From IMG/VR virus record IMGVR_UViG_3300020331_000002: DNA of 64,000 bases. The stretch is one strand, 5' to 3'. Both the position numbers and the translations under genes were made by a program. Shown piece after piece: positions 1-64,000 of the stretch (position 1 is its first letter; each line of letters starts with the position of its first letter). This DNA is from a virus. Taxonomy: Duplodnaviria > Caudoviricetes. A model generated the notes under the pieces. It worked only from the letters and a program-made list of their open reading frames with translations, searched no databases and had not been told where the DNA came from.

Positions 1-668
1 AGTTTTTCAGTAAGGATAAAAAACCACACGTTGTTAGCCGCTACGCTACCCGCCTCAAGCACAACAAGAAGCTGATTCTCAGAACCGGTGTTGTTGGCTT
101 TTGTGGTGAGTTTTATCCCTACGCTTACGCTAACATCATGGACTATTTCGATCACGACTACGAATCCGGCGAGTACTTTTATTCGTACGATGAGTTGGTT
201 GAATTCATACGTGGTTATTTTCCTGATTATGTTAAGCGCGTCAAGGGAATTGATCTACTAGATATACCGAACGAGATTCATCGCTGGCACGCTGACGAAT
301 TACATGAACATTTTATCGGAAAATACACCAAGCTTGAGTCGATATTCAGGGATCGTGGAATAGCGTACTTTGATATATCACCTAACCAATCGTACCATTA
401 CGGTGTTGGGTTCGTTAAGTACCCCGAACTTAAGAAGCTTAATTTTGCACGCGTGGTTGACCCGTTTACTGCGTTCCAGAAGATAGAGCAGTTTATTACC
501 GGTGTGCTAGGTGTAGGTGAGCCCGAAACTGTAGAAATAGGTGATACATACAAGCGCGACGCAAAAGGCTTTGATGAGTGGAGTTTCAAAAACCAGCCGC
601 CCATGCCCGGTAAGAGTCGCAAAATACGCAAACAAAAACGTAAACTAAAAGGCCGCAACAATGGGTGA
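1..668 (+). CDS. conserved phage hypothetical protein, 5'-truncated (frame open from window start)
   Basis: Frame of ORF 138..668 has no stop back to position 3 (…GVVGFCGEFYP…); C-terminal DPFTAFQKIEQFITGVL…KGFDEWSFK. Confidence 0.7.
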   Translation, partial: FFSKDKKPHVVSRYATRLKHNKKLILRTGVVGFCGEFYPYAYANIMDYFDHDYESGEYFYSYDELVEFIRGYFPDYVKRVKGIDLLDIPNEIHRWHADELHEHFIGKYTKLESIFRDRGIAYFDISPNQSYHYGVGFVKYPELKKLNFARVVDPFTAFQKIEQFITGVLGVGEPETVEIGDTYKRDAKGFDEWSFKNQPPMPGKSRKIRKQKRKLKGRNNG

Positions 669-20546: not shown

Positions 20547-21547
20547 GCAAAAAGAGACTTTACATACTCGTAGACACTATGAACATGGCGTTCAGGGCAC
20601 GACACGGTGGTAGCAAAGCTGCCGACATTGATCAACAAATCGGTATGAGCATGCATATTATGCTGACTTCTATCGCGTCCTGTGTGCACCGCTTCGGGCA
20701 AGACACAGAAGCAAGGGTAGTGTTCAACTTCGAGGGGAAGTCCTGGCGTAAGAAGGTTAGTGCGCAATACAAAGCAAACCGTGACTTAAAGAAACTAGAA
20801 CGTACACCGCGTGAAGTGGAAGAAGACGAATTGTTTATCGAAGCAGTAGAAAGCTTCAAGGAGTTTGTCACCGAAAAGACTAACGCGATTTGTCTTCAAC
20901 ACGACGAGCTAGAAGCCGATGACTTTATTGCATTCTGGATTCAGCACCACCCGGATGATGATCACATCATAGTAAGTACCGATTCTGACTATAAACAGCT
21001 TATTGCCGAGAATGTTGATTTGTTCGACGGTGTTCGTGACTATTTGTACACAATAGACGGCGTGTTTGACAACAAGGGCCGACCGGTAGAAAAGAAAGGT
21101 GTGCCACTTACTGTTGAACCCGAATACGAATTGTTTATGAAGTGCATACGCGGCGACAAGTCAGACAATATCTTTTCTGCATACCCGGGCGTCAGAGAAA
21201 AAGGCACCAAGAACAAAGTGGGTATCCGTGAGGCTTTTGAAGACCGTCACGACAAGGGTTACAACTATAACAACTTCATGTTACAACGTTGGACAAATCA
21301 CGAGGGCGAGGAAGTAAGAGTAAAAGACGCTTACGCCATGAACCGTCTTTTAATTGACCTAACTGCGCAGCCTGAAGAGTACAAAGTCAAAGGCGCGATT
21401 ACCATTGAAAATGCCAAGAATGCCGAGCCAATCCCGGCTGCATCAATTGGTTTTAACTTCATGAAGTTCTGTCAAATGTGGGCACTAAACCGCATTGGTG
21501 AGAAAACAGACTTCTTTGCTGGATTGCTGAGCAAAGGCTACCAGTAA
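20543..21547 (+). CDS. rnh: 5'-3' exonuclease / T4 RNase H-like
   Basis: ILVDTMN, YKANR, LEADD, STDSDYKQL, GDKSDNI. Confidence 0.93.
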   Translation: MSKKRLYILVDTMNMAFRARHGGSKAADIDQQIGMSMHIMLTSIASCVHRFGQDTEARVVFNFEGKSWRKKVSAQYKANRDLKKLERTPREVEEDELFIEAVESFKEFVTEKTNAICLQHDELEADDFIAFWIQHHPDDDHIIVSTDSDYKQLIAENVDLFDGVRDYLYTIDGVFDNKGRPVEKKGVPLTVEPEYELFMKCIRGDKSDNIFSAYPGVREKGTKNKVGIREAFEDRHDKGYNYNNFMLQRWTNHEGEEVRVKDAYAMNRLLIDLTAQPEEYKVKGAITIENAKNAEPIPAASIGFNFMKFCQMWALNRIGEKTDFFAGLLSKGYQ

Positions 21548-43870: not shown

Positions 43871-43991
43871 TGGTAGGGAGTGCAGGACTCGAACCTGCGA
43901 CCCACGGCTTACAAGGCAATAAGGATATGCTGTTAGAATACTAAAACAGTATTCATGTTTACGTTGCTCTACCCAACTGAGCTAACTCCCT
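43871..43991 (-). tRNA. tRNA-Thr(UGU) interrupted by a 44-nt insert in the anticodon stem
   Basis: Removing 43918-43961 yields a canonical 77-nt cloverleaf with ACGGC-CTTGTAA-GCCGT. Confidence 0.8.
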
Positions 43992-54973: not shown

Positions 54974-55053
54974 TGGCGCAGGTGTAGGGAGTCGAACCCT
55001 CAAGTCTCTCGACACGGTTTTGGAGACCGCTTTGCTCGCCAATGCGCACCTAC
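54974..55053 (-). tRNA. trnW: tRNA-Trp(CCA), atypical (V-arm hairpin, weak D arm)
   Basis: GCGGT-CTCCAAA-ACCGT; GTC-GAGA-GAC variable stem. Confidence 0.75.
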
Positions 55054-58307: not shown

Positions 58308-58661
58308 TTAATAATCGTCGGTAGGATCAAACACAAGATAAGTATAACGGCCGCCATATGCATTCACTGTGTGAACACGAGCGTATACGCCGCCTTCAGT
58401 GTCTACGCCACGATTACTACCGTAGGCTACTTGCACCTTAGATCCGTGCTTGGCTTTCACTTTTTGCAAGTCACTGATCAACTCGTCGATGTCATGTGCG
58501 CCAGATATTCTGTCGCCTGCATCTTCGTGCGGTTCATCTTCATCATCGTCTGGCATGTCGTAATCGTCTTCATTAACTTGTTCGACGTTCTCTTCAACAG
58601 CCCTGTTTTGTTCTGTTTCATCGCCAATGGCATCCATCAGCGAGCGCATATAATCCGACAT
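58308..58661 (-). CDS. candidate internal head protein (start corrected to MSDYMRSLMDAI)
   Basis: CTAAATA at 58690 and GAGGAG RBS lie inside the longer tracked ORF. Confidence 0.7.
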   Translation of the reverse strand: MSDYMRSLMDAIGDETEQNRAVEENVEQVNEDDYDMPDDDEDEPHEDAGDRISGAHDIDELISDLQKVKAKHGSKVQVAYGSNRGVDTEGGVYARVHTVNAYGGRYTYLVFDPTDDY

Positions 58662-58713
58662 GTAGTTCTCCTCGTTGTCGCTTTCTTTGTATTTAGCTAC
58701 GACAAGGTCGATA

Positions 58714-58788
58714 TGGTAGAGACACCGTGGGTCGAACACGGAGCACCAGCCTTATGAGAGCCGGGCGAATACCTTCCATTCTGTCTCT
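58714..58788 (-). tRNA. trnM: tRNA-Met(CAU)
   Basis: CGGCT-CTCATAA-GGCTG; AGAGACA/TGTCTCT, CCA. Confidence 0.8.
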
Positions 58789-58794
58789 AGTATT

Positions 58795-58884
58795 TGGCGG
58801 AGAGTACAGGATTCGAACCTGTGCGCCCCTTTCGGGACTCTCGATTAGCAGTCGAGCGCGATAGACCTACTCTGCCAACTCTCC
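58795..58884 (-). tRNA. trnS: tRNA-Ser(GCU)
   Basis: CTCGA-CTGCTAA-TCGAG, long V arm, CCA. Confidence 0.93.
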
Positions 58885-58891
58885 TTTAAAC

Positions 58892-58988
58892 TAGTACCAG
58901 GTACGGGATTCGAACCCGCAGGGTCATTATTGCAGACCGCGACAAGCACTTCCGTGATGCCGCGCCTTCCCATTCGGCGCAACCTAGT
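58892..58988 (-). tRNA. atypical tRNA, CGG (Pro) at anticodon position; A33, 25-nt V region, CTA end
   Basis: ACTAGGT/ACCTGGT, D and T arms intact; loop CACGGAA. Confidence 0.55.
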
Positions 58989-58991
58989 ATA

Positions 58992-59085
58992 TGGCGGTGA
59001 GGGTGGGATTCGAACCCACGGCCGATGTTACCACCGACGTTTGATTTCAAGTCAAGTGCAATAAACCAGACTCTGCCACCTCACC
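58992..59085 (-). tRNA. trnS: tRNA-Ser(UGA)
   Basis: TTGA-CTTGAAA-TCAA, long V arm, CCA. Confidence 0.92.
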
Positions 59086-59241
59086 ATAAACCTTTACAAG
59101 CTGTTTATATCAGCTATAGCTTCTTTGAGAGATTCACGCGCACGTTTTTCGCGCTCGAGTTCTTCAACTCTTTTTTCTAGCTTTTTTACAAGCTTAACAA
59201 GATCACCGTGTGTCATTGTCATTGTGAACCTCTATTTAATA

Positions 59242-59279
59242 TGGCGCCGGCCCTGCGATACAACAGGGGATCACCCGGC
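59242..59279 (-). ncRNA. 38-nt CCA-ended minihelix
   Basis: GCCGG-GTGATC-CCCTG-TTGTATCG-CAGGG-CCGGC-G-CCA. Confidence 0.5.
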
Positions 59280-59288
59280 ATTGTAAAC

Positions 59289-59363
59289 TGGTAGGTTAGG
59301 TGAGTATCGAACTCACTACAACTGCTTTGTAAGAACAGCGCCTCACCTGTCGGCCTCTAACCT
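59289..59363 (-). tRNA. trnV: tRNA-Val(UAC)
   Basis: CTGTT-CTTACAA-AGCAG, CCA. Confidence 0.88.
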
Positions 59364-59370
59364 ATAATTC

Positions 59371-59667
59371 TTAAACTGCTTCGTGTGTAAACTTACACAT
59401 TACTCGGTAGAATATCTGCGTTGCAGCATACTTGTCGATATTGTCAAGAAACATTTGGAAGAACTTCTTCTCCGAGTCACTATTGTCCATAGCAACTGCT
59501 TTATTCAAAGTATCTACATATGTTTCTCTAGGAATCAACATAAAGTTTGCGTATTCTACACGACCCCATTCGATTAACTGCTTAAATGTTTCGGGGTCTA
59601 ACTCCGCTTTAAGCTCGTTGACGCGCTCTGTAAGCTCGTCTATGAAGTTATTTTTGTAATCTTCCAT
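59371..59667 (-). CDS. hypothetical protein
   Basis: ORF track. Confidence 0.6.
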   Translation of the reverse strand: MEDYKNNFIDELTERVNELKAELDPETFKQLIEWGRVEYANFMLIPRETYVDTLNKAVAMDNSDSEKKFFQMFLDNIDKYAATQIFYRVMCKFTHEAV

Positions 59668-59786
59668 AACGTTACTCGTTAAGTTTTAATCTATAATAGC
59701 ACGTCTGTAGAAGCTTACAAGAATAATTTCTACTTTATTTAAAAATAAAAAAGTGCCAAAGTAATTACTACAATGACACCTTAAAA

Positions 59787-59859
59787 TGGTTGCGGGTGCA
59801 GGTAACGATCCTGCCGGTCCTGGGTTATGAGCCCTGGTTGAACACCATGTTCACCCGCG
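59787..59859 (-). tRNA. trnfM: initiator tRNA-fMet(CAU) copy 1
   Basis: C1:A72 mismatch, GGG/CCC anticodon stem; unusual ATCGTTA T loop. Confidence 0.8.
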
Positions 59860-59866
59860 ATAGATT

Positions 59867-59945
59867 TGGTTGCAAGGGCGGGATTTGAACCCGCGTCCGC
59901 TAGGGTTATGAGCCCTGCCATCTGCCAGACTGATTGTACCTTGCT
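59867..59945 (-). tRNA. trnfM: initiator tRNA-fMet(CAU) copy 2
   Basis: 1:72 mismatch, GGG/CCC anticodon stem, CCA. Confidence 0.85.
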
Positions 59946-59951
59946 ATTGTT

Positions 59952-60031
59952 TGGCGCGGCAGGTAGGAGTCGAACCCACATGTTTCCAATTACTCTTTCG
60001 ACTGGTTCGTAGCCAGAGGAGATACAACCGC
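59952..60031 (-). tRNA. arm-rearranged tRNA-Arg(ACG)-like RNA
   Basis: Acceptor, 8-nt linker, CTGG-CTACGAA-CCAG, then GAG-TAATTGG, T arm, CCA; no 5' D arm. Confidence 0.7.
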
Positions 60032-60041
60032 ATTAAACTTT

Positions 60042-60536
60042 TTAACCTTTTTCGTCAAGAAGGATATCTGTTATAATTTCTTCAAATGCGTGGTAGTCTT
60101 CCATACCATCCCAATTGCCTTCGTTATAAAAAATATCCGTCGTTAGTGATACTATCTCGCGTCGACGATTACGTGGCATTGCCTTCCAATCATCTATCGA
60201 AGTAACGCCTTCTCTACGCAAGGCCGACAAAATAGCAACAGAAAAACTGTCATCATTGTTGCCTGACTTATTAGCATCATTTAACACCGAATCTATCATA
60301 TCAGCAAACATTGCTGAATCCGGCATCGCTTCATCGTCAATCCAGCCATGATTGTAAAACAAGTCACTAGCTTGATCGCCGTAGCGATATTTTTCGCGTC
60401 TTGACAACGCGTTCCAGTCAGCCAGTGTGTTGATATTATCACGAGCTAACATCTGCAATACACCTGACTTAACAACGGCATCGTTACCGCTAGTGTCTTC
60501 CATCAAGTTCATTAATTTTCGCATCTGATCTGACAT
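60042..60536 (-). CDS. candidate internal head protein with internal duplicated domain
   Basis: MSDQMRKLMNLME; two similar halves (L.R..I.(T/S)..DW.A..R…D(L/I)FYN.G.). Confidence 0.7.
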   Translation of the reverse strand: MSDQMRKLMNLMEDTSGNDAVVKSGVLQMLARDNINTLADWNALSRREKYRYGDQASDLFYNHGWIDDEAMPDSAMFADMIDSVLNDANKSGNNDDSFSVAILSALRREGVTSIDDWKAMPRNRRREIVSLTTDIFYNEGNWDGMEDYHAFEEIITDILLDEKG

Positions 60537-60545
60537 AAATGTTCC

Positions 60546-61025
60546 TTATTTGATCTGCAATATGCTTGCTACTTGTCGTAATGCGACTTCGCGCATCGCT
60601 TGCGACTTGTATCTTTCTTGCATAAAACTCAAAAGTTGGTTTATGCCATCTTCGAAATCATCATACGCAGAGTTAGGGTCACCAATACCGTAAGCACCGA
60701 TGATAACACCGTTAGCAAAGTATTCACCGTCTTCTGCTATTTCAAGGACTTCGGCTTCTTCTTTAGCTTGCGCGGCCTGGATGACCTTAGTAGCAAACTC
60801 GTACGGAGCCATAGCGCCATATGATAAGAGTTGCTTGCCTACTTTTTGCGTATAAGACTCTACCGAACCTTGTTCTATACCGTATATTAACGCCGACGCT
60901 TTATCGTAAAACTGATCAACTGATATAGCATCAGAGTTTTCCGAAATAGCTGTGTCAATATTTTGATTTAATGGCTCGGATTGACCTTCCATTAAATTCA
61001 TTATTTTGCGCATCTGATCTGACAC
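60546..61025 (-). CDS. candidate internal head protein
   Basis: MSDQMRKIMNLME; GCGTAAATAAGCTATAT upstream. Confidence 0.7.
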   Translation of the reverse strand: MSDQMRKIMNLMEGQSEPLNQNIDTAISENSDAISVDQFYDKASALIYGIEQGSVESYTQKVGKQLLSYGAMAPYEFATKVIQAAQAKEEAEVLEIAEDGEYFANGVIIGAYGIGDPNSAYDDFEDGINQLLSFMQERYKSQAMREVALRQVASILQIK

Positions 61026-61075
61026 TTAGTATCTCCTATAAACTATTCGTATATAGCTTATTTACGCATTTAAGT

Positions 61076-61152
61076 TGGAAGGGGTGGCAGGATTCGAACC
61101 TGCGAGTACCGGGATCAAAGCCCGGGGCCTTAGACCGCTTGGCAACACCCCT
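61076..61152 (-). tRNA. trnQ: tRNA-Gln(UUG)
   Basis: CCGGG-CTTTGAT-CCCGG, CCA. Confidence 0.93.
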
Positions 61153-61158
61153 ACAAAC

Positions 61159-61235
61159 TGGTCGGTGTAAGACGACTTGAACGTCTGACCCCTTGGTCCC
61201 AAACCAAGTGCTCTACCAAACTGAGCTATACACCG
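61159..61235 (-). tRNA. trnP: tRNA-Pro(UGG)
   Basis: CTTGG-TTTGGGA-CCAAG, CCA. Confidence 0.95.
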
Positions 61236-61241
61236 TTTAAC

Positions 61242-61319
61242 TGGTTGTCCCTGCTGGATTTGAACCAGCGATCAGCGATTATCAGTCGCACGCTTTAGAC
61301 CAGACTAAGCTAAGGGACA
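61242..61319 (-). tRNA. trnI: tRNA-Ile(GAU)
   Basis: GCGA-CTGATAA-TCGC, CCA. Confidence 0.92.
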
Positions 61320-61327
61320 ATAAACCT

Positions 61328-62428
61328 TTATCGTTTACGTAGAGTAATCTCAACGCCTTTAATTGCATTGAGTTCATCTACGATTTGTTGAGGATCTACC
61401 TCTATGTCGGTACGACGTCTAGGCACATACTCAATGTCTCTACCTATTAATTGAATACGTTTAGGCAAAACACGCAATATAAACGGACCACCAACCTGTA
61501 GATTTCTATTAGTTAGGTCATAGTAATAACCGAGCATTTTGAGCGCTTTCGCCACTTCGTCCGATACTACTTGTTTTTTCACCTGTTTTGATGGCTTGTC
61601 CGAAACGACATACTCTTCTGCAGGTGTATCGTCGTCATACTCAAGTGCTAACTCAACCACAGCCTTTACGTGTTTCTTTGCAATAAACAAAACGCCGTCG
61701 TCCATGTCATGCTCTTCGTCATCTAATTCAAGATCCGAAACAAGACCAGCGATTTCACTTGCTGACCACCCGGGCATGGTTAATTGTACCATATTACGCT
61801 TGGACTCTCTGACTGACTTTTTCGGACCGTTGCTTTGGCTAGCATAATACTTACTGAACTCTTCGTCAGCATATTCAGCCATTTCTTCAATGAAATCCCA
61901 GCGAGGGCCATCTTCAGCATATGCCAAATCCGGAACTATTTTTGTCAGCACTTCGTTTTCAACTGCCGACCCATCATCATCTAGAATTGCGCGGGTCAAG
62001 TCATGTAAGCGATCTCTGTCGTCGCCAAATAACTCGTTGCCAGCGTCATGTGCCATGCCATCTAATTTAGACATCAAACGGCCGAAAACATGTCTTCTTG
62101 CTTTAGCATGAATGTTCTGCGATTCTTGAGATTGTTCTGCTATTTGTATATCAAACGATACGCTACCGTAGCCGAGCTTGGCAATTGCCCTTTCAACGGC
62201 GTCTTCGTTAGTTCCAGAGAACGTTACAAAAGCAACTAAATCACGGCCTCTTATTTCAGCCTCGTGTACTTGACCGTATTCATCAAGGATATCTTCAATA
62301 GCATAACCGTCGCTACTATCAACACCTGATACGACCACACGGTAGCGGCCTTCTAAGCGATACTCTTCGGCGCTTTCGTTAACACCTTCAACTAAATTCA
62401 TTAATTCGCGCATTTTTTCAGACATCAT
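61328..62428 (-). CDS. candidate internal head protein (multi-domain, acidic)
   Basis: MSEKMRELMNLVE; GCGTAAATAAGCTATAT upstream. Confidence 0.7.
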   Translation of the reverse strand: MMSEKMRELMNLVEGVNESAEEYRLEGRYRVVVSGVDSSDGYAIEDILDEYGQVHEAEIRGRDLVAFVTFSGTNEDAVERAIAKLGYGSVSFDIQIAEQSQESQNIHAKARRHVFGRLMSKLDGMAHDAGNELFGDDRDRLHDLTRAILDDDGSAVENEVLTKIVPDLAYAEDGPRWDFIEEMAEYADEEFSKYYASQSNGPKKSVRESKRNMVQLTMPGWSASEIAGLVSDLELDDEEHDMDDGVLFIAKKHVKAVVELALEYDDDTPAEEYVVSDKPSKQVKKQVVSDEVAKALKMLGYYYDLTNRNLQVGGPFILRVLPKRIQLIGRDIEYVPRRRTDIEVDPQQIVDELNAIKGVEITLRKR

Positions 62429-62472
62429 TGTCTCCCATAAACTATGTCATATAGCTTATTTACGCAGGTAAT

Positions 62473-62572
62473 TGGTGGACCCCCGCGGACTTGCACCACA
62501 CGCCTCAATACTACCCCCACTTTATTTCTTTTAAGACACCGGATTTACAGTCCGGGGTGGGGAAAGGGATCC
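62473..62572 (-). tRNA. arm-rearranged tRNA-Tyr(GUA)-like RNA
   Basis: GGATCCC/GGGGTCC; CCCCAC/GTGGGG stem enclosing CCGGA-CTGTAAA-TCCGG; T arm, ACCA. Confidence 0.7.
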
Positions 62573-62634
62573 TTAATCTGTTACAAAAAACTGTTTTGGG
62601 AGGGGTCGCTACCAACCCCTCAATAAAACAATTC

Positions 62635-63126
62635 TTAAAAGTGCGGGTTTCTGTCATTGTGAACACCGCGTGCAAGCGTCCAAGTGCCTGCGCGTTTATA
62701 AGTAGCAGTGTTGCCTTGACGCCAAAACACTCCGCCGTCGCTTGTTGTAACTTTCTTCATAGTTTTAGAAATCTTTTCAATTGTACCGCACGGATACCAG
62801 TCACCGTTGAAACCGTAACTTACTACGTCACCAATCTTTGGCATGCGCTCTACTGCATAATCATCGTGACGCTCTACAGCAATATAGGTATCACCGGTTT
62901 CTTCACTTAACTGCTCAGCGATTCGTTGCGCAATAAAGCTAGAGCCGCAATAATTAAGGGTAACAAACTGGGTCATTATTTCTTTGTAAAAGTCCGGCGC
63001 TTTTTCTTCATCGCCGCCTGCCATCTTTAGTGCAGTTTCACGGACTTCTTCTGCCCATGCTTCAGTGTAGTCTTCGTTACGATCAATAATGTTACCAGTT
63101 TCTAAATCTACTCTATAATGTATCAT
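62635..63126 (-). CDS. hypothetical early protein
   Basis: ORF track; promoter-like AT tract upstream. Confidence 0.65.
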   Translation of the reverse strand: MIHYRVDLETGNIIDRNEDYTEAWAEEVRETALKMAGGDEEKAPDFYKEIMTQFVTLNYCGSSFIAQRIAEQLSEETGDTYIAVERHDDYAVERMPKIGDVVSYGFNGDWYPCGTIEKISKTMKKVTTSDGGVFWRQGNTATYKRAGTWTLARGVHNDRNPHF

Positions 63127-63227
63127 AATTTGCTACCTTGTGTTTGTTTAATCAACCTACACAGACATAATAGCAAAATGACATTCAAGTACAAGACTTG
63201 TTTGAAAATAATTTAAAATATATTTTG

Positions 63228-63311
63228 CACAGCGGACGGGTCTCGAACCCGCAATGCGATATTCGCGCTGCCTTGAAAGGGCAGTGACTTTACCAGTTTG
63301 TCCACCGCTGT
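63228..63311 (-). tRNA. trnE: tRNA-Glu(UUC) with long variable arm, CCA not encoded
   Basis: CTGCC-CTTTCAA-GGCAG; GCG-AATAT-CGC V stem. Confidence 0.85.
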
Positions 63312-63383
63312 GGAAAATATACTTATTCTGGGCAAAAATAAAGCGACTTAATAGCCGCTTGATCATGGCATTAAGGGTTGTTA

Positions 63384-64000
63384 CTATGCGCGTCTGCGAA
63401 CAGCTATTCCTAGTACCGCTAAAAGCGCAAGCGCTAATGATCCCGGTTCCGGAACCGCTGTTACGCCATCTAACTGCAAATCATATGAACGCTGCATTAG
63501 CCCAGTATCAGGCGATGCAATATTACCGCGCACTTGGATGGCTCCTATATTTGTGAAGTCAGTATTACTAAATTCACTCGAAAGGAAAAACGCATCACGT
63601 CCTGGACGATCAACGCCCGGTATCGGTAACTCAACAGTTTCGGCGGTTCCGTTAGGACCTGACCAAAACGTTACGTCAAACCAAGCATCCAAATCTGATT
63701 CAATCATAGTTGTAATGAATTTTATCGGGCCGCCGATAGCAGTTAAGTCAAGTCCGCCTAAGCCGAAAGGATTAATTGCATTTGATCCGTCAACGCCGTC
63801 CCATTGAATGGTAAACATTGATTCATTACCTGCGCCTGAACTAAAGAAAAAGTTATCAGCCGCTACGTTTACAGAAGCGCCTTGGTTGTACACGTCAACA
63901 ACGCTTGTTATTTCTAAATCTCGTTCTCCACCGATCATAGAACCCAATACCGAGCTAAACAAAGTTTCGCCTTGCATCACTGCTAATGGTCCTTGATCAT
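63384..64000 (-). CDS. PEP-CTERM protein, 5'-truncated by window end
   Basis: C-terminal VPEPGSLALALLAVLGIAVRRRA; frame open to window end. Confidence 0.9.
   Translation of the reverse strand, partial: DQGPLAVMQGETLFSSVLGSMIGGERDLEITSVVDVYNQGASVNVAADNFFFSSGAGNESMFTIQWDGVDGSNAINPFGLGGLDLTAIGGPIKFITTMIESDLDAWFDVTFWSGPNGTAETVELPIPGVDRPGRDAFFLSSEFSNTDFTNIGAIQVRGNIASPDTGLMQRSYDLQLDGVTAVPEPGSLALALLAVLGIAVRRRA

Follow-up and report, generated by a model that had tools for sequence, protein, structure and literature searches.

Predicted rewiring of the tRNA core in phage-borne tRNA-Arg and tRNA-Tyr genes

Two genes of a jumbo phage, one resembling tRNA-Arg(ACG) and the other tRNA-Tyr(GUA), are very probably real, selected RNA genes with a rewired tRNA core. 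They lie in the viral record IMGVR_UViG_3300020331_000002 (310,672 bp, with direct terminal repeats), of which we analyzed a window of 64,000 nucleotides, namely the minus strand of bases 22685-86684; the phage itself (~311 kb) is present in marine, reef and estuary metagenomes. Both genes belong to a long tRNA cluster on the minus strand of the window and run from 60031 to 59952 (Arg) and from 62572 to 62473 (Tyr), exactly where an earlier note made from the letters alone had placed them. That note had proposed that the parts of the D arm are present but joined in another order, and its proposal is supported by the covariation of an unconventional helix, here termed X, and, in the Arg type, by a conserved core with an isotype-specific A20; comparison with related sequences gives two families, with 71 Arg-type and 54 Tyr-type distinct sequences. 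In the Arg type the inner blocks 10-21 and 22-48 appear, from the sequence, to have changed places. We further consider it probable that both genes work as tRNAs, being processed, charged by the arginyl- and tyrosyl-tRNA synthetases (ArgRS and TyrRS) of the host and used in translation as they are.

The genes are invisible to standard tools. ARAGORN reports 17 tRNAs in the window and 23 in the whole genome, and Rfam 16 in the window; at 59952-60031 and 62473-62572 ARAGORN makes no call and the tRNA model RF00005 (gathering threshold 29 bits) has no match even in a scan of 58600-64000 at E<=10, in which no match to RF02553 (YrlA) overlaps either gene. A megablast search of the 3-kb region against phage records gave ordinary tRNA-Pro matches only. 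Relatives traced through a neighboring 366-aa protein and the DNA polymerase comprise one close sister phage (G001; DNA polymerase 99% identical) and a few distant or short contigs. The expectation that scanners would mis-call such genes is supported by the silence of ARAGORN and Rfam and by GenBank, where family members are labelled 'tRNA-Val(aac)' or 'tRNA-OTHER' or are left blank.

Architecture of the Arg and Tyr genes

The Arg gene (59952-60031, minus strand; 80 nt including the encoded CCA) scores 85.7 bits against R1, a covariance model of the Arg-type layout. Read as RNA, its parts follow in the order acceptor-UA-UCUC-C-anticodon arm-CGAAA-GAGU-AAUUGGAA-ACAU-T arm-acceptor 3' strand-G-CCA. 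The acceptor stem GCGGTTG/CTGCCGC (60025-60031 with 59956-59962) forms six of seven pairs, with one U.U, and leads to the discriminator G (59955) and CCA (59952-59954). Its 5' strand is followed at 60019-60024 by the U8-A9 linker (60024-60023) and the 5' strand of helix X, TCTC (60022-60019), and then, after a single C, by the anticodon arm TCTGG-CTACGAA-CCAGT (60001-60017; anticodon ACG at 60008-60010), whose stem has four pairs and a U.U. The segment 59992-60000 holds a 5-nt variable bulge, CGAAA (59996-60000), and the 3' strand of X, GAGT (59992-59995), so that X in this gene comprises the three pairs of CTC/GAG. Next come the D-loop-like AATTGGAA (A14, A15, G18, G19, A20) with the linker ACAT (together 59980-59991) and the T arm GTGGG-TTCGACT-CCTAC (59963-59979), whose loop conforms to T54-Psi55-C56 and A58. 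The acceptor, anticodon and T arms were assigned from the sequence itself, both strands of X from covariation, and the linker and D-loop-like segment from conservation across the family.

In the fold that we propose, the strand after U8-A9 would act as D-stem strand 22-25 (plus residue 26) and run into the anticodon stem via one nucleotide. After the anticodon arm and the 5-nt variable bulge, the partner strand (10-13) would continue the 3' strand of the anticodon stem by stacking, to be followed by a normal-looking D loop (A14 A15 U U G18 G19 A20) and a short linker to the T arm. Stacked on the anticodon stem, X would give an arm of about the length of the usual D stem plus anticodon stem, and the D-loop-like strand would emerge where G18G19 are within reach of the T loop.

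The Tyr gene (62473-62572, minus strand; 100 nt including the encoded CCA) scores 90.4 bits against the Tyr-type model R2, a score that is not independent, R2 having been built from an alignment that includes this gene. Its order as RNA is acceptor-UU-UCCCCAC-C-anticodon arm-18 nt-GUGGGGG-13 nt-T arm-acceptor 3' strand-A-CCA. All seven acceptor pairs form (GGATCCC/GGGGTCC; 62566-62572 with 62477-62483); after TT (62564-62565) comes the 5' strand of X, TCCCCAC (62557-62563), which pairs with 62514-62520 and is backed by a compensatory pair in the sister phage. The anticodon arm CCGGA-CTGTAAA-TCCGG (62539-62555; anticodon GTA at 62546-62548) has a 5-bp stem. Four nucleotides directly after this stem (TGTC, 62535-62538) pair with four directly before the T stem (GGCG, 62501-62504) in a second helix, V, supported by compensations in relatives. 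The intervening 62505-62534, delimited by family comparison, comprises an A-rich spacer (62521-62534), the X 3' strand GTGGGGG (62514-62520) and the 9-nt D-loop-like TAGTATTGA (62505-62513). The 3' part (62476-62500), read directly from the sequence as was the anticodon arm, consists of the T arm TGTGG-TGCAAGT-CCGCG (62484-62500), the acceptor 3' strand and the discriminator A (62476), with CCA at the 3' end.

In the window V reads UGUC/GGCG, with two G.U pairs, and in most family members UGUC/GACG; its compensations (CGUG/CACG, UGUG/CACG, CGUA/UACA, and CUCC/GGAG in the crAss001 type) are few but consistent, and its covariation is thin. From its position V is predicted to be the stem of the class II variable arm. 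Because the X 3' strand and the short D-loop-like piece lie inside the loop of V, X and V cross in a pseudoknot; the principle proposed for the Arg gene would thereby be realized in a class II tRNA, with the partner strand and D-loop-like piece housed within the variable-arm loop.

Several features recorded in the earlier note can now be sorted. The acceptor, T arm, CCA and 7-nt anticodon loop are present in both genes (the loops, CTACGAA and CTGTAAA, have U33 and a purine at 37), with the qualification that the Tyr T loop TGCAAGT is non-canonical, its G55 departing from T54-Psi55-C56 and from the family consensus TTCRA. The absence of a 5' D arm is confirmed: the acceptor and anticodon stems are just 7 nt (Arg) or 10 nt (Tyr) apart, too short a gap for a D hairpin at the usual place. 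The pairing of this linker with a strand 3' of the anticodon arm (CTC/GAG and TCCCCAC/GTGGGGG) is likewise upheld, by covariation in the 71 and 54 sequences. The D-loop-like GG segment stands for Arg, which keeps the tertiary nucleotides and A20; the GG of TAGTATTGAGG in Tyr most likely belongs to helix V (TGTC/GGCG). The idea of one and the same rewiring in two isotypes has to be given up, as the Arg type is nested and the Tyr type is pseudoknotted through the variable arm.

Covariation in two families

Viral contigs were searched for the Arg type with loop motifs only (CTACGAA, ATTGG and GGTTCGA) at spacings exceeding those of an ordinary tRNA. This recovered 72 loci. In 53 of them (46 distinct) the acceptor stem and T arm are correctly placed and the layout is that of the window gene. 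Since the retrieval involved no pairing criterion for helix X, these loci provide a clean test of it. In 37 sequences of common spacing, anchored on the UA linker and AAUUGG, X pairs 2 and 3 are Watson-Crick in 37/37 with four pair types each, and 98 of 111 X cells are paired; shuffling the partners between sequences gives 55.3 +/- 4.3, and none of 2000 such shuffles attains 98. The model R1, laid out as acceptor, UA, X 5' strand, 1 nt, anticodon arm, 4-5 nt bulge, X 3' strand, UAAUUGG-type D loop, linker and T arm, scores family members at 47-95 bits and all ordinary tRNAs of the same loci at <=30. In the R1 alignment of 71 distinct sequences, a lower bound of the family, X is 92% paired with double changes in all three pairs, and its covariation score is 0.916 versus 0.231 for shuffled and 0.11-0.18 for slid partners. 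Pairing in the acceptor helix reaches 98.8%, and all seven of its pairs show double changes. The layout scan also returned force-fitted ordinary tRNAs (e.g., Ser and Val genes), which were weeded out by eye; the shuffled control of the layout search gave 2 matches in 1.08 Mb.

The Arg-type core is nearly invariant: U8, A9, A14 and G18 occur in 71/71 members, R15 and G19 in 70/71, and an A-U directly before the T stem, which could supply the partner of residue 15, in 70/71. The base after GG, left free in the search pattern, is A in 64/64 members with an Arg anticodon (ACG 49, UCU 8, UCG 4, CCU 3) and U in 7/7 Ile/Met members; the window gene reads AATTGGA. Bacterial ArgRS relies chiefly on A20, a role that this base has in no other tRNA family (PMC9976931). 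That a displaced D loop should carry an identity base particular to the isotype would be hard to explain unless the synthetase reads these RNAs.

For the Tyr gene, two sequence patterns run against viral contigs found only the sister phage, or random or ordinary Tyr genes. BLAST with the gene recovered a full-length relative in Pseudomonas phage SCYZ1 (75% identity) and then in phages Rembedalsseter and Lyrsu01-03, and the layout scan detected a Tyr-type gene in a crAss001-type Kehishuvirus, with an identical copy in crAss001 and ~26 other Bacteroides phage records among those listed. A pattern for the 5' side gave 57 loci in metagenome contigs, and 46 of the 47 distinct sequences are of the Tyr type. 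A perfect 6-bp complement of the sequence's own X strand is found in the variable region of 37 of 39 analysable metagenome sequences; with the X strand of a member having a different triplet, the control matched in 199 of 1350 cases (16 different triplets involved). In the R2 alignment, which comprises 54 distinct sequences, pairing in X amounts to 94.7%; five of its seven pairs show double changes, 23 to 31 of them in each of the three central pairs. The Tyr genes of the window and the sister phage differ by two bases in all, which make up one compensatory X pair (C-G to U-A). The gene also has the bacterial tyrosine identity set of G1-C72, A73, GUA and a long variable region, and no variant letters are listed for it in four runs (two DNA, two RNA-library) although its flanks vary. 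As a separate observation, a metagenome contig (L159:3697-3784, minus strand) combines a Tyr-type body (X UCCUACC/GGUAGG, V CGUC/GACG) with the loop GUUGAGC, i.e., a UGA (Ser) anticodon, and the class II rearranged layout may not be limited to Tyr.

These comparisons bear on the reading of both genes as ordinary cloverleaves whose unusual but conventional D arm has been misread. The general rule that bacterial-type tRNAs are cloverleaves is all that favors it. The nucleotides before the anticodon stem are too few for a hairpin, the Rfam tRNA model stays silent even at E<=10, and the X pairing of both families is lost once the partner columns are shifted by 1 to 3; we accordingly regard a misread cloverleaf as scarcely credible. 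According to a 2024 paper, all known bacterial tRNAs are cloverleaves. We found no description of such tRNAs in the full-text literature covered, which leaves out most subscription journals, or in a 2020 review of non-canonical tRNAs.

Allele exchange, gap filling and distribution

In the slot of the window's Arg gene, sister phage G001 carries an ordinary tRNA-Arg(acg) (L002:8078-8155) with an identical anticodon loop, CTACGAA. The flanks of the two phages match as far as tRNA position 1, and the match resumes at the GCCA end; the body between is unrelated. The same kind of exchange is seen in the wild: in public DNA runs from an estuary and a marine sample, 59956-60039 is replaced in place by 81 other letters, which we infer to be the canonical allele of G001, and the marine sample also holds the window's Arg allele. 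This in-place replacement indicates that the two Arg alleles behave as interchangeable cassettes. The occurrence of ordinary and rearranged Arg alleles at one slot, apparently both in one wild sample, is new. The tRNA-Pro(tgg) slot at 61159-61235 shows a comparable pattern, 61164-61238 being replaced by 77 other letters in RNA-library run X18 and DNA run X12, and the sister phage has an unrelated tRNA-Pro(tgg) sequence there; it seems that this phage population swaps tRNA bodies precisely, between flanks that stay fixed.

The rearranged genes also occupy gaps in tRNA sets. ARAGORN's 23 tRNAs include none for Tyr, Phe or Trp and no CGN-reading Arg; a scan for acceptor, T arm and CCA adds odd Phe and Trp genes and the two rearranged genes, upon which all twenty amino acids are covered. 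The codons concerned are common, with UAU+UAC at 43 and CGU+CGC+CGA at 33 per 1000 in long open reading frames (ORFs). In an unrelated phage of the crAss001 type, the tRNAs serve 19 amino acids, and only Tyr would be missing without the rearranged gene; there, the annotation leaves gaps of 114 nt and 90 nt in the tRNA array that suit the rearranged Tyr and Arg(ACG) genes. That the window Tyr gene is the sole Tyr tRNA of an otherwise complete set, likewise in the crAss001-type phage, is also new. In SCYZ1 (47 kb) the only tRNA that Rfam matches is one for Pro, directly adjoining the rearranged Tyr gene. No TyrRS, ArgRS or CCA-adding enzyme was found in the genome of the window phage, so that the task would fall to enzymes of the host, in agreement with the encoded CCA and host-type identity elements of both genes.

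Between them, the Arg and Tyr types occur in cultured phages of Streptomyces (43 records), Microbacterium, Rhodococcus, Mesorhizobium, Bacteroides and Pseudomonas, where they sit within tRNA arrays and are nearly all unannotated. The member in Rhodococcus phage Trina is labelled 'tRNA-OTHER'. In Streptomyces phage Yaboi, a UCU member is annotated 'tRNA-Val(aac)' (L097:26687-26764 = NC_048730.1 86686-86764), although its layout is that of the family and makes it a rearranged tRNA-Arg with the loop CTTCTAA; the CCU and GAU members are left blank. A strict Arg pattern run against one genome per species for 185,579 prokaryote species gave six matches, four of them real, and all four lie on short contigs of metagenome-assembled genomes crowded with tRNAs, i.e., phage-like DNA. 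Both families are almost phage-only, and species-representative cellular genomes are almost without them.

The odd Trp and Phe genes have peculiarities of their own. The 80-nt tRNA-Trp(CCA)-like gene (54974-55053, minus strand; uncalled by ARAGORN) has an acceptor stem, T arm, GCCA end and the loop CTCCAAA; its D arm is very short, and its variable region contains an additional hairpin of 3 bp. The tRNA-Phe(GAA)-like gene, just beyond the window (G000 21442-21516, plus strand), has an ordinary D arm and the T loop GGCGGTA, and ARAGORN is silent on it as well. A 71-nt tRNA-like gene far from the cluster (G000 204333-204403, minus strand) has the loop CTCTAAA (CUA, amber-reading) and an anticodon arm resembling that of the Trp gene.

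Further unusual genes lie in the cluster itself. Immediately downstream of the Arg gene are two initiator-like CAT tRNAs (59870-59945 and 59787-59859, both minus strand) with GGG/CCC in the anticodon stem; the first, mismatched at A1.A72, scores 39.7 bits with Rfam while ARAGORN is silent, and the second, called by neither program, has C1.A72, a D hairpin whose loop measures 3 nt and ATCGTTA as its T loop. Between two Ser tRNAs is a 95-nt class II tRNA (58894-58988, minus strand) that ARAGORN reads as Pro(cgg), with the loop CACGGAA (A at position 33); its homologue in the sister phage is called tRNA-Stop(tta), and a Ser-type tRNA whose anticodon shifts is a possible reading. A 121-nt tRNA-shaped gene (43871-43991, minus strand) has a normal acceptor and normal D and T arms, with ~45 extra nucleotides in the anticodon region. 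Three ORFs interleaved with the tRNA genes (60042-60536, 60546-61025 and 61328-62428, all minus strand) share a near-identical N-terminal peptide, MSDQMRKxMNLMEG or MMSEKMRELMNLVEG, and match no Pfam family; a conserved motif, GCGTAAATAAGCTATA...ATAGTTTAT, precedes at least two of them (60546-61025 and 61328-62428). A fourth ORF of the cluster (63384-63980, minus strand) carries a C-terminal PEP-CTERM sorting motif.

Weighing the readings against known systems

A number of points tell against rewired, working tRNAs. Both loci are covered by contigs from the RNA libraries of two studies, and three RNA libraries contain the stretch, but such contigs cannot prove transcription, as they give no ends, strand or level and DNA carry-over is possible. 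In the window Arg gene helix X has only three pairs, the anticodon stem four plus a U.U, and the acceptor one U.U. The window Tyr gene is an outlier of its family, lacking the U-G-G that most members have after X (GTAGTATTGA stands there) and having G55; this lineage is common only to the window, the sister phage and identical metagenome copies. RNAalifold on a MAFFT alignment of the Arg type found three stems (acceptor, anticodon and T) without a D arm, and did not predict helix X, a miss that we attribute to the 3-bp length of the helix and to a register split by MAFFT, on account of which the anchor-based test and model-based alignments were used instead. Single-sequence folding z-scores are not significant (Arg +0.24, Tyr -0.47); as the single sequences fold no better than shuffles, the case is decided by comparative evidence. 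Yaboi carries rearranged genes beside ordinary tRNAs, including both an ordinary and a rearranged Ile(gat), so that rearranged genes are not always needed to complete a set. The same genome as the window's, finally, carries candidate Y-RNA-like tRNA mimics, look-alikes that would not decode.

The weak folding of single sequences and the mismatches in the Arg stems are what decayed tRNA genes or chance look-alikes would show. Yet hundreds of compensatory changes run through the two families, the Tyr gene remains without listed variants in four runs while its flanks vary, and the shuffled layout-search control produced only its two matches in 1.08 Mb, which together make decay or chance a most improbable explanation.

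Re-joining of the transcript is a further alternative. In Cyanidioschyzon merolae, circularly permuted tRNA genes have the whole gene permuted, and processing restores a normal tRNA. The phage genes resemble these in that the order of their parts is not the textbook one, and the transcripts could in principle be cut and re-joined to the ordinary order, so that the mature RNA would be a cloverleaf; permuted tRNA genes do occur in nature, and large phages often have RNA repair enzymes. The genes under study differ, however, in having normal ends, with only inner blocks swapped and a pairing that fits the gene order. Moving an internal block would take two cuts and two ligations in a folded RNA already ending in acceptor ends; X covaries in gene order; the family extends to small phages such as SCYZ1; and no bulge-helix-bulge or circularisation signals are seen. 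Restoration of a cloverleaf by re-joining is therefore highly improbable.

A more serious rival holds that the RNAs are non-decoding look-alikes, either decoys for tRNA-cutting nucleases (Septu, or retron-Eco7 for Tyr), with the anticodon arm as bait, or partners of phage RNA-binding proteins. In YrlA-type RNAs (RF02553), a Ro60-binding module replaces the working anticodon arm. These too are tRNA-shaped RNAs in phages; the window genes differ from them by intact anticodon arms and identity elements. Decoys would be in keeping with the other tRNA-shaped, Y-RNA-like candidates of this genome, with the rearranged genes that stand beside ordinary ones and a Ro-like protein in Yaboi, and with SCYZ1, where the rearranged Tyr gene is accompanied only by the adjacent Pro match. 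Bait for a nuclease of the anticodon or variable arm, on the other hand, could do without an A20 specific to the isotype, without the acceptor identity of bacterial Tyr, and without an encoded CCA or the conserved core U8/A14/G18G19; nor would one expect canonical and rearranged alleles to substitute for each other at one slot, or rearranged genes to supply exactly what is missing from two unrelated, nearly complete tRNA sets. A decoy that is charged would, moreover, in practice also be a tRNA. On balance we think it unlikely that the RNAs are such look-alikes, and favor their use in translation; the L shape, processing, charging, A34-to-I editing and decoding are what we infer for them.

Set beside known tRNAs, the window Arg gene agrees with the ordinary tRNA-Arg(ACG/ICG) of RF00005, such as that of the sister phage, in its acceptor stem, discriminator G, CCA, CTACGAA and TTCGA, in U8, A9, A14, R15, G18, G19 and A20, in length (~77 nt without CCA) and in genomic slot. 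It differs in that the 22-25-like strand stands before the anticodon arm and the 10-13 strand and D loop after the variable loop, in a junction of three arms rather than four, and in having no match to the Rfam tRNA model. The window Tyr gene resembles the bacterial class II tRNA-Tyr(GUA) in its CTGTAAA loop, G1-C72, A73 and the long variable region closed by a stem beside the T arm; unlike that tRNA, it lacks the D hairpin and has a 6-7 bp helix running from the 5' linker region into the loop of the variable arm as a pseudoknot. The tRNA-Tyr of T5 is likewise phage-borne but is still a cloverleaf (PMC13096335; PMC11555353). The D-armless mitochondrial tRNA-Ser(AGY) of metazoa and mitochondrial tRNA-Ser of nematodes (PMC7609411, PMC9427863) similarly have no D hairpin and three arms; in these, however, the D arm is lost, with a short connector 5' of the anticodon arm, eroded tertiary nucleotides and adapted partner proteins, whereas the window genes keep every part of the D arm in a new order and must work with ordinary bacterial enzymes. 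Allo-tRNAs with 8/4 or 9/3 acceptor/T arms (PMC5389517), also non-standard, mined from (meta)genomes and in some cases found in phages, are four-armed cloverleaves in which only stem lengths are altered.

As to why a core would be rewired, immune evasion is a possible but doubtful answer: with the D-stem strands re-threaded (Arg, Ile) or the variable arm buried in a pseudoknot (Tyr), synthetases and ribosomes would accept these RNAs, whereas tRNA-cutting host defenses (among them Septu and retron-Eco7, which cleave the variable arm of tRNA-Tyr) would miss them, and the nuclease evaded might perhaps also be one used by the phage itself against host tRNAs. The T5 tRNA-Tyr escapes retron-Eco7 through a distinct variable loop (PMC13096335; PMC11555353). 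By analogy, a Tyr tRNA whose variable arm is tied in a pseudoknot would be an obvious candidate for a T5-like escape. We know of no nuclease matching the Arg/Ile type. Were immune evasion the cause, the alternating alleles at one slot would be the footprint of an arms race in wild populations.

The canonical and rearranged alleles at one slot of two 99%-related phages constitute a natural experiment, and several carriers of the families are cultured. The tRNA sets of many phages, among them crAss001-type gut phages and the Streptomyces phages of SEA-PHAGES, are under-counted or mislabelled, which distorts studies of codon usage and recoding. If the proposed function holds true, they would be the first tRNAs from nature to serve bacterial ribosomes without a cloverleaf fold, with a bearing on the structure-function rules of tRNA, on the design of orthogonal tRNAs and on what synthetases, EF-Tu, RNase P and the ribosome read. 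If the RNAs are charged and decode, the four-armed cloverleaf would not be obligatory for bacterial translation, and there would be at least two other threadings of the L-shaped core.

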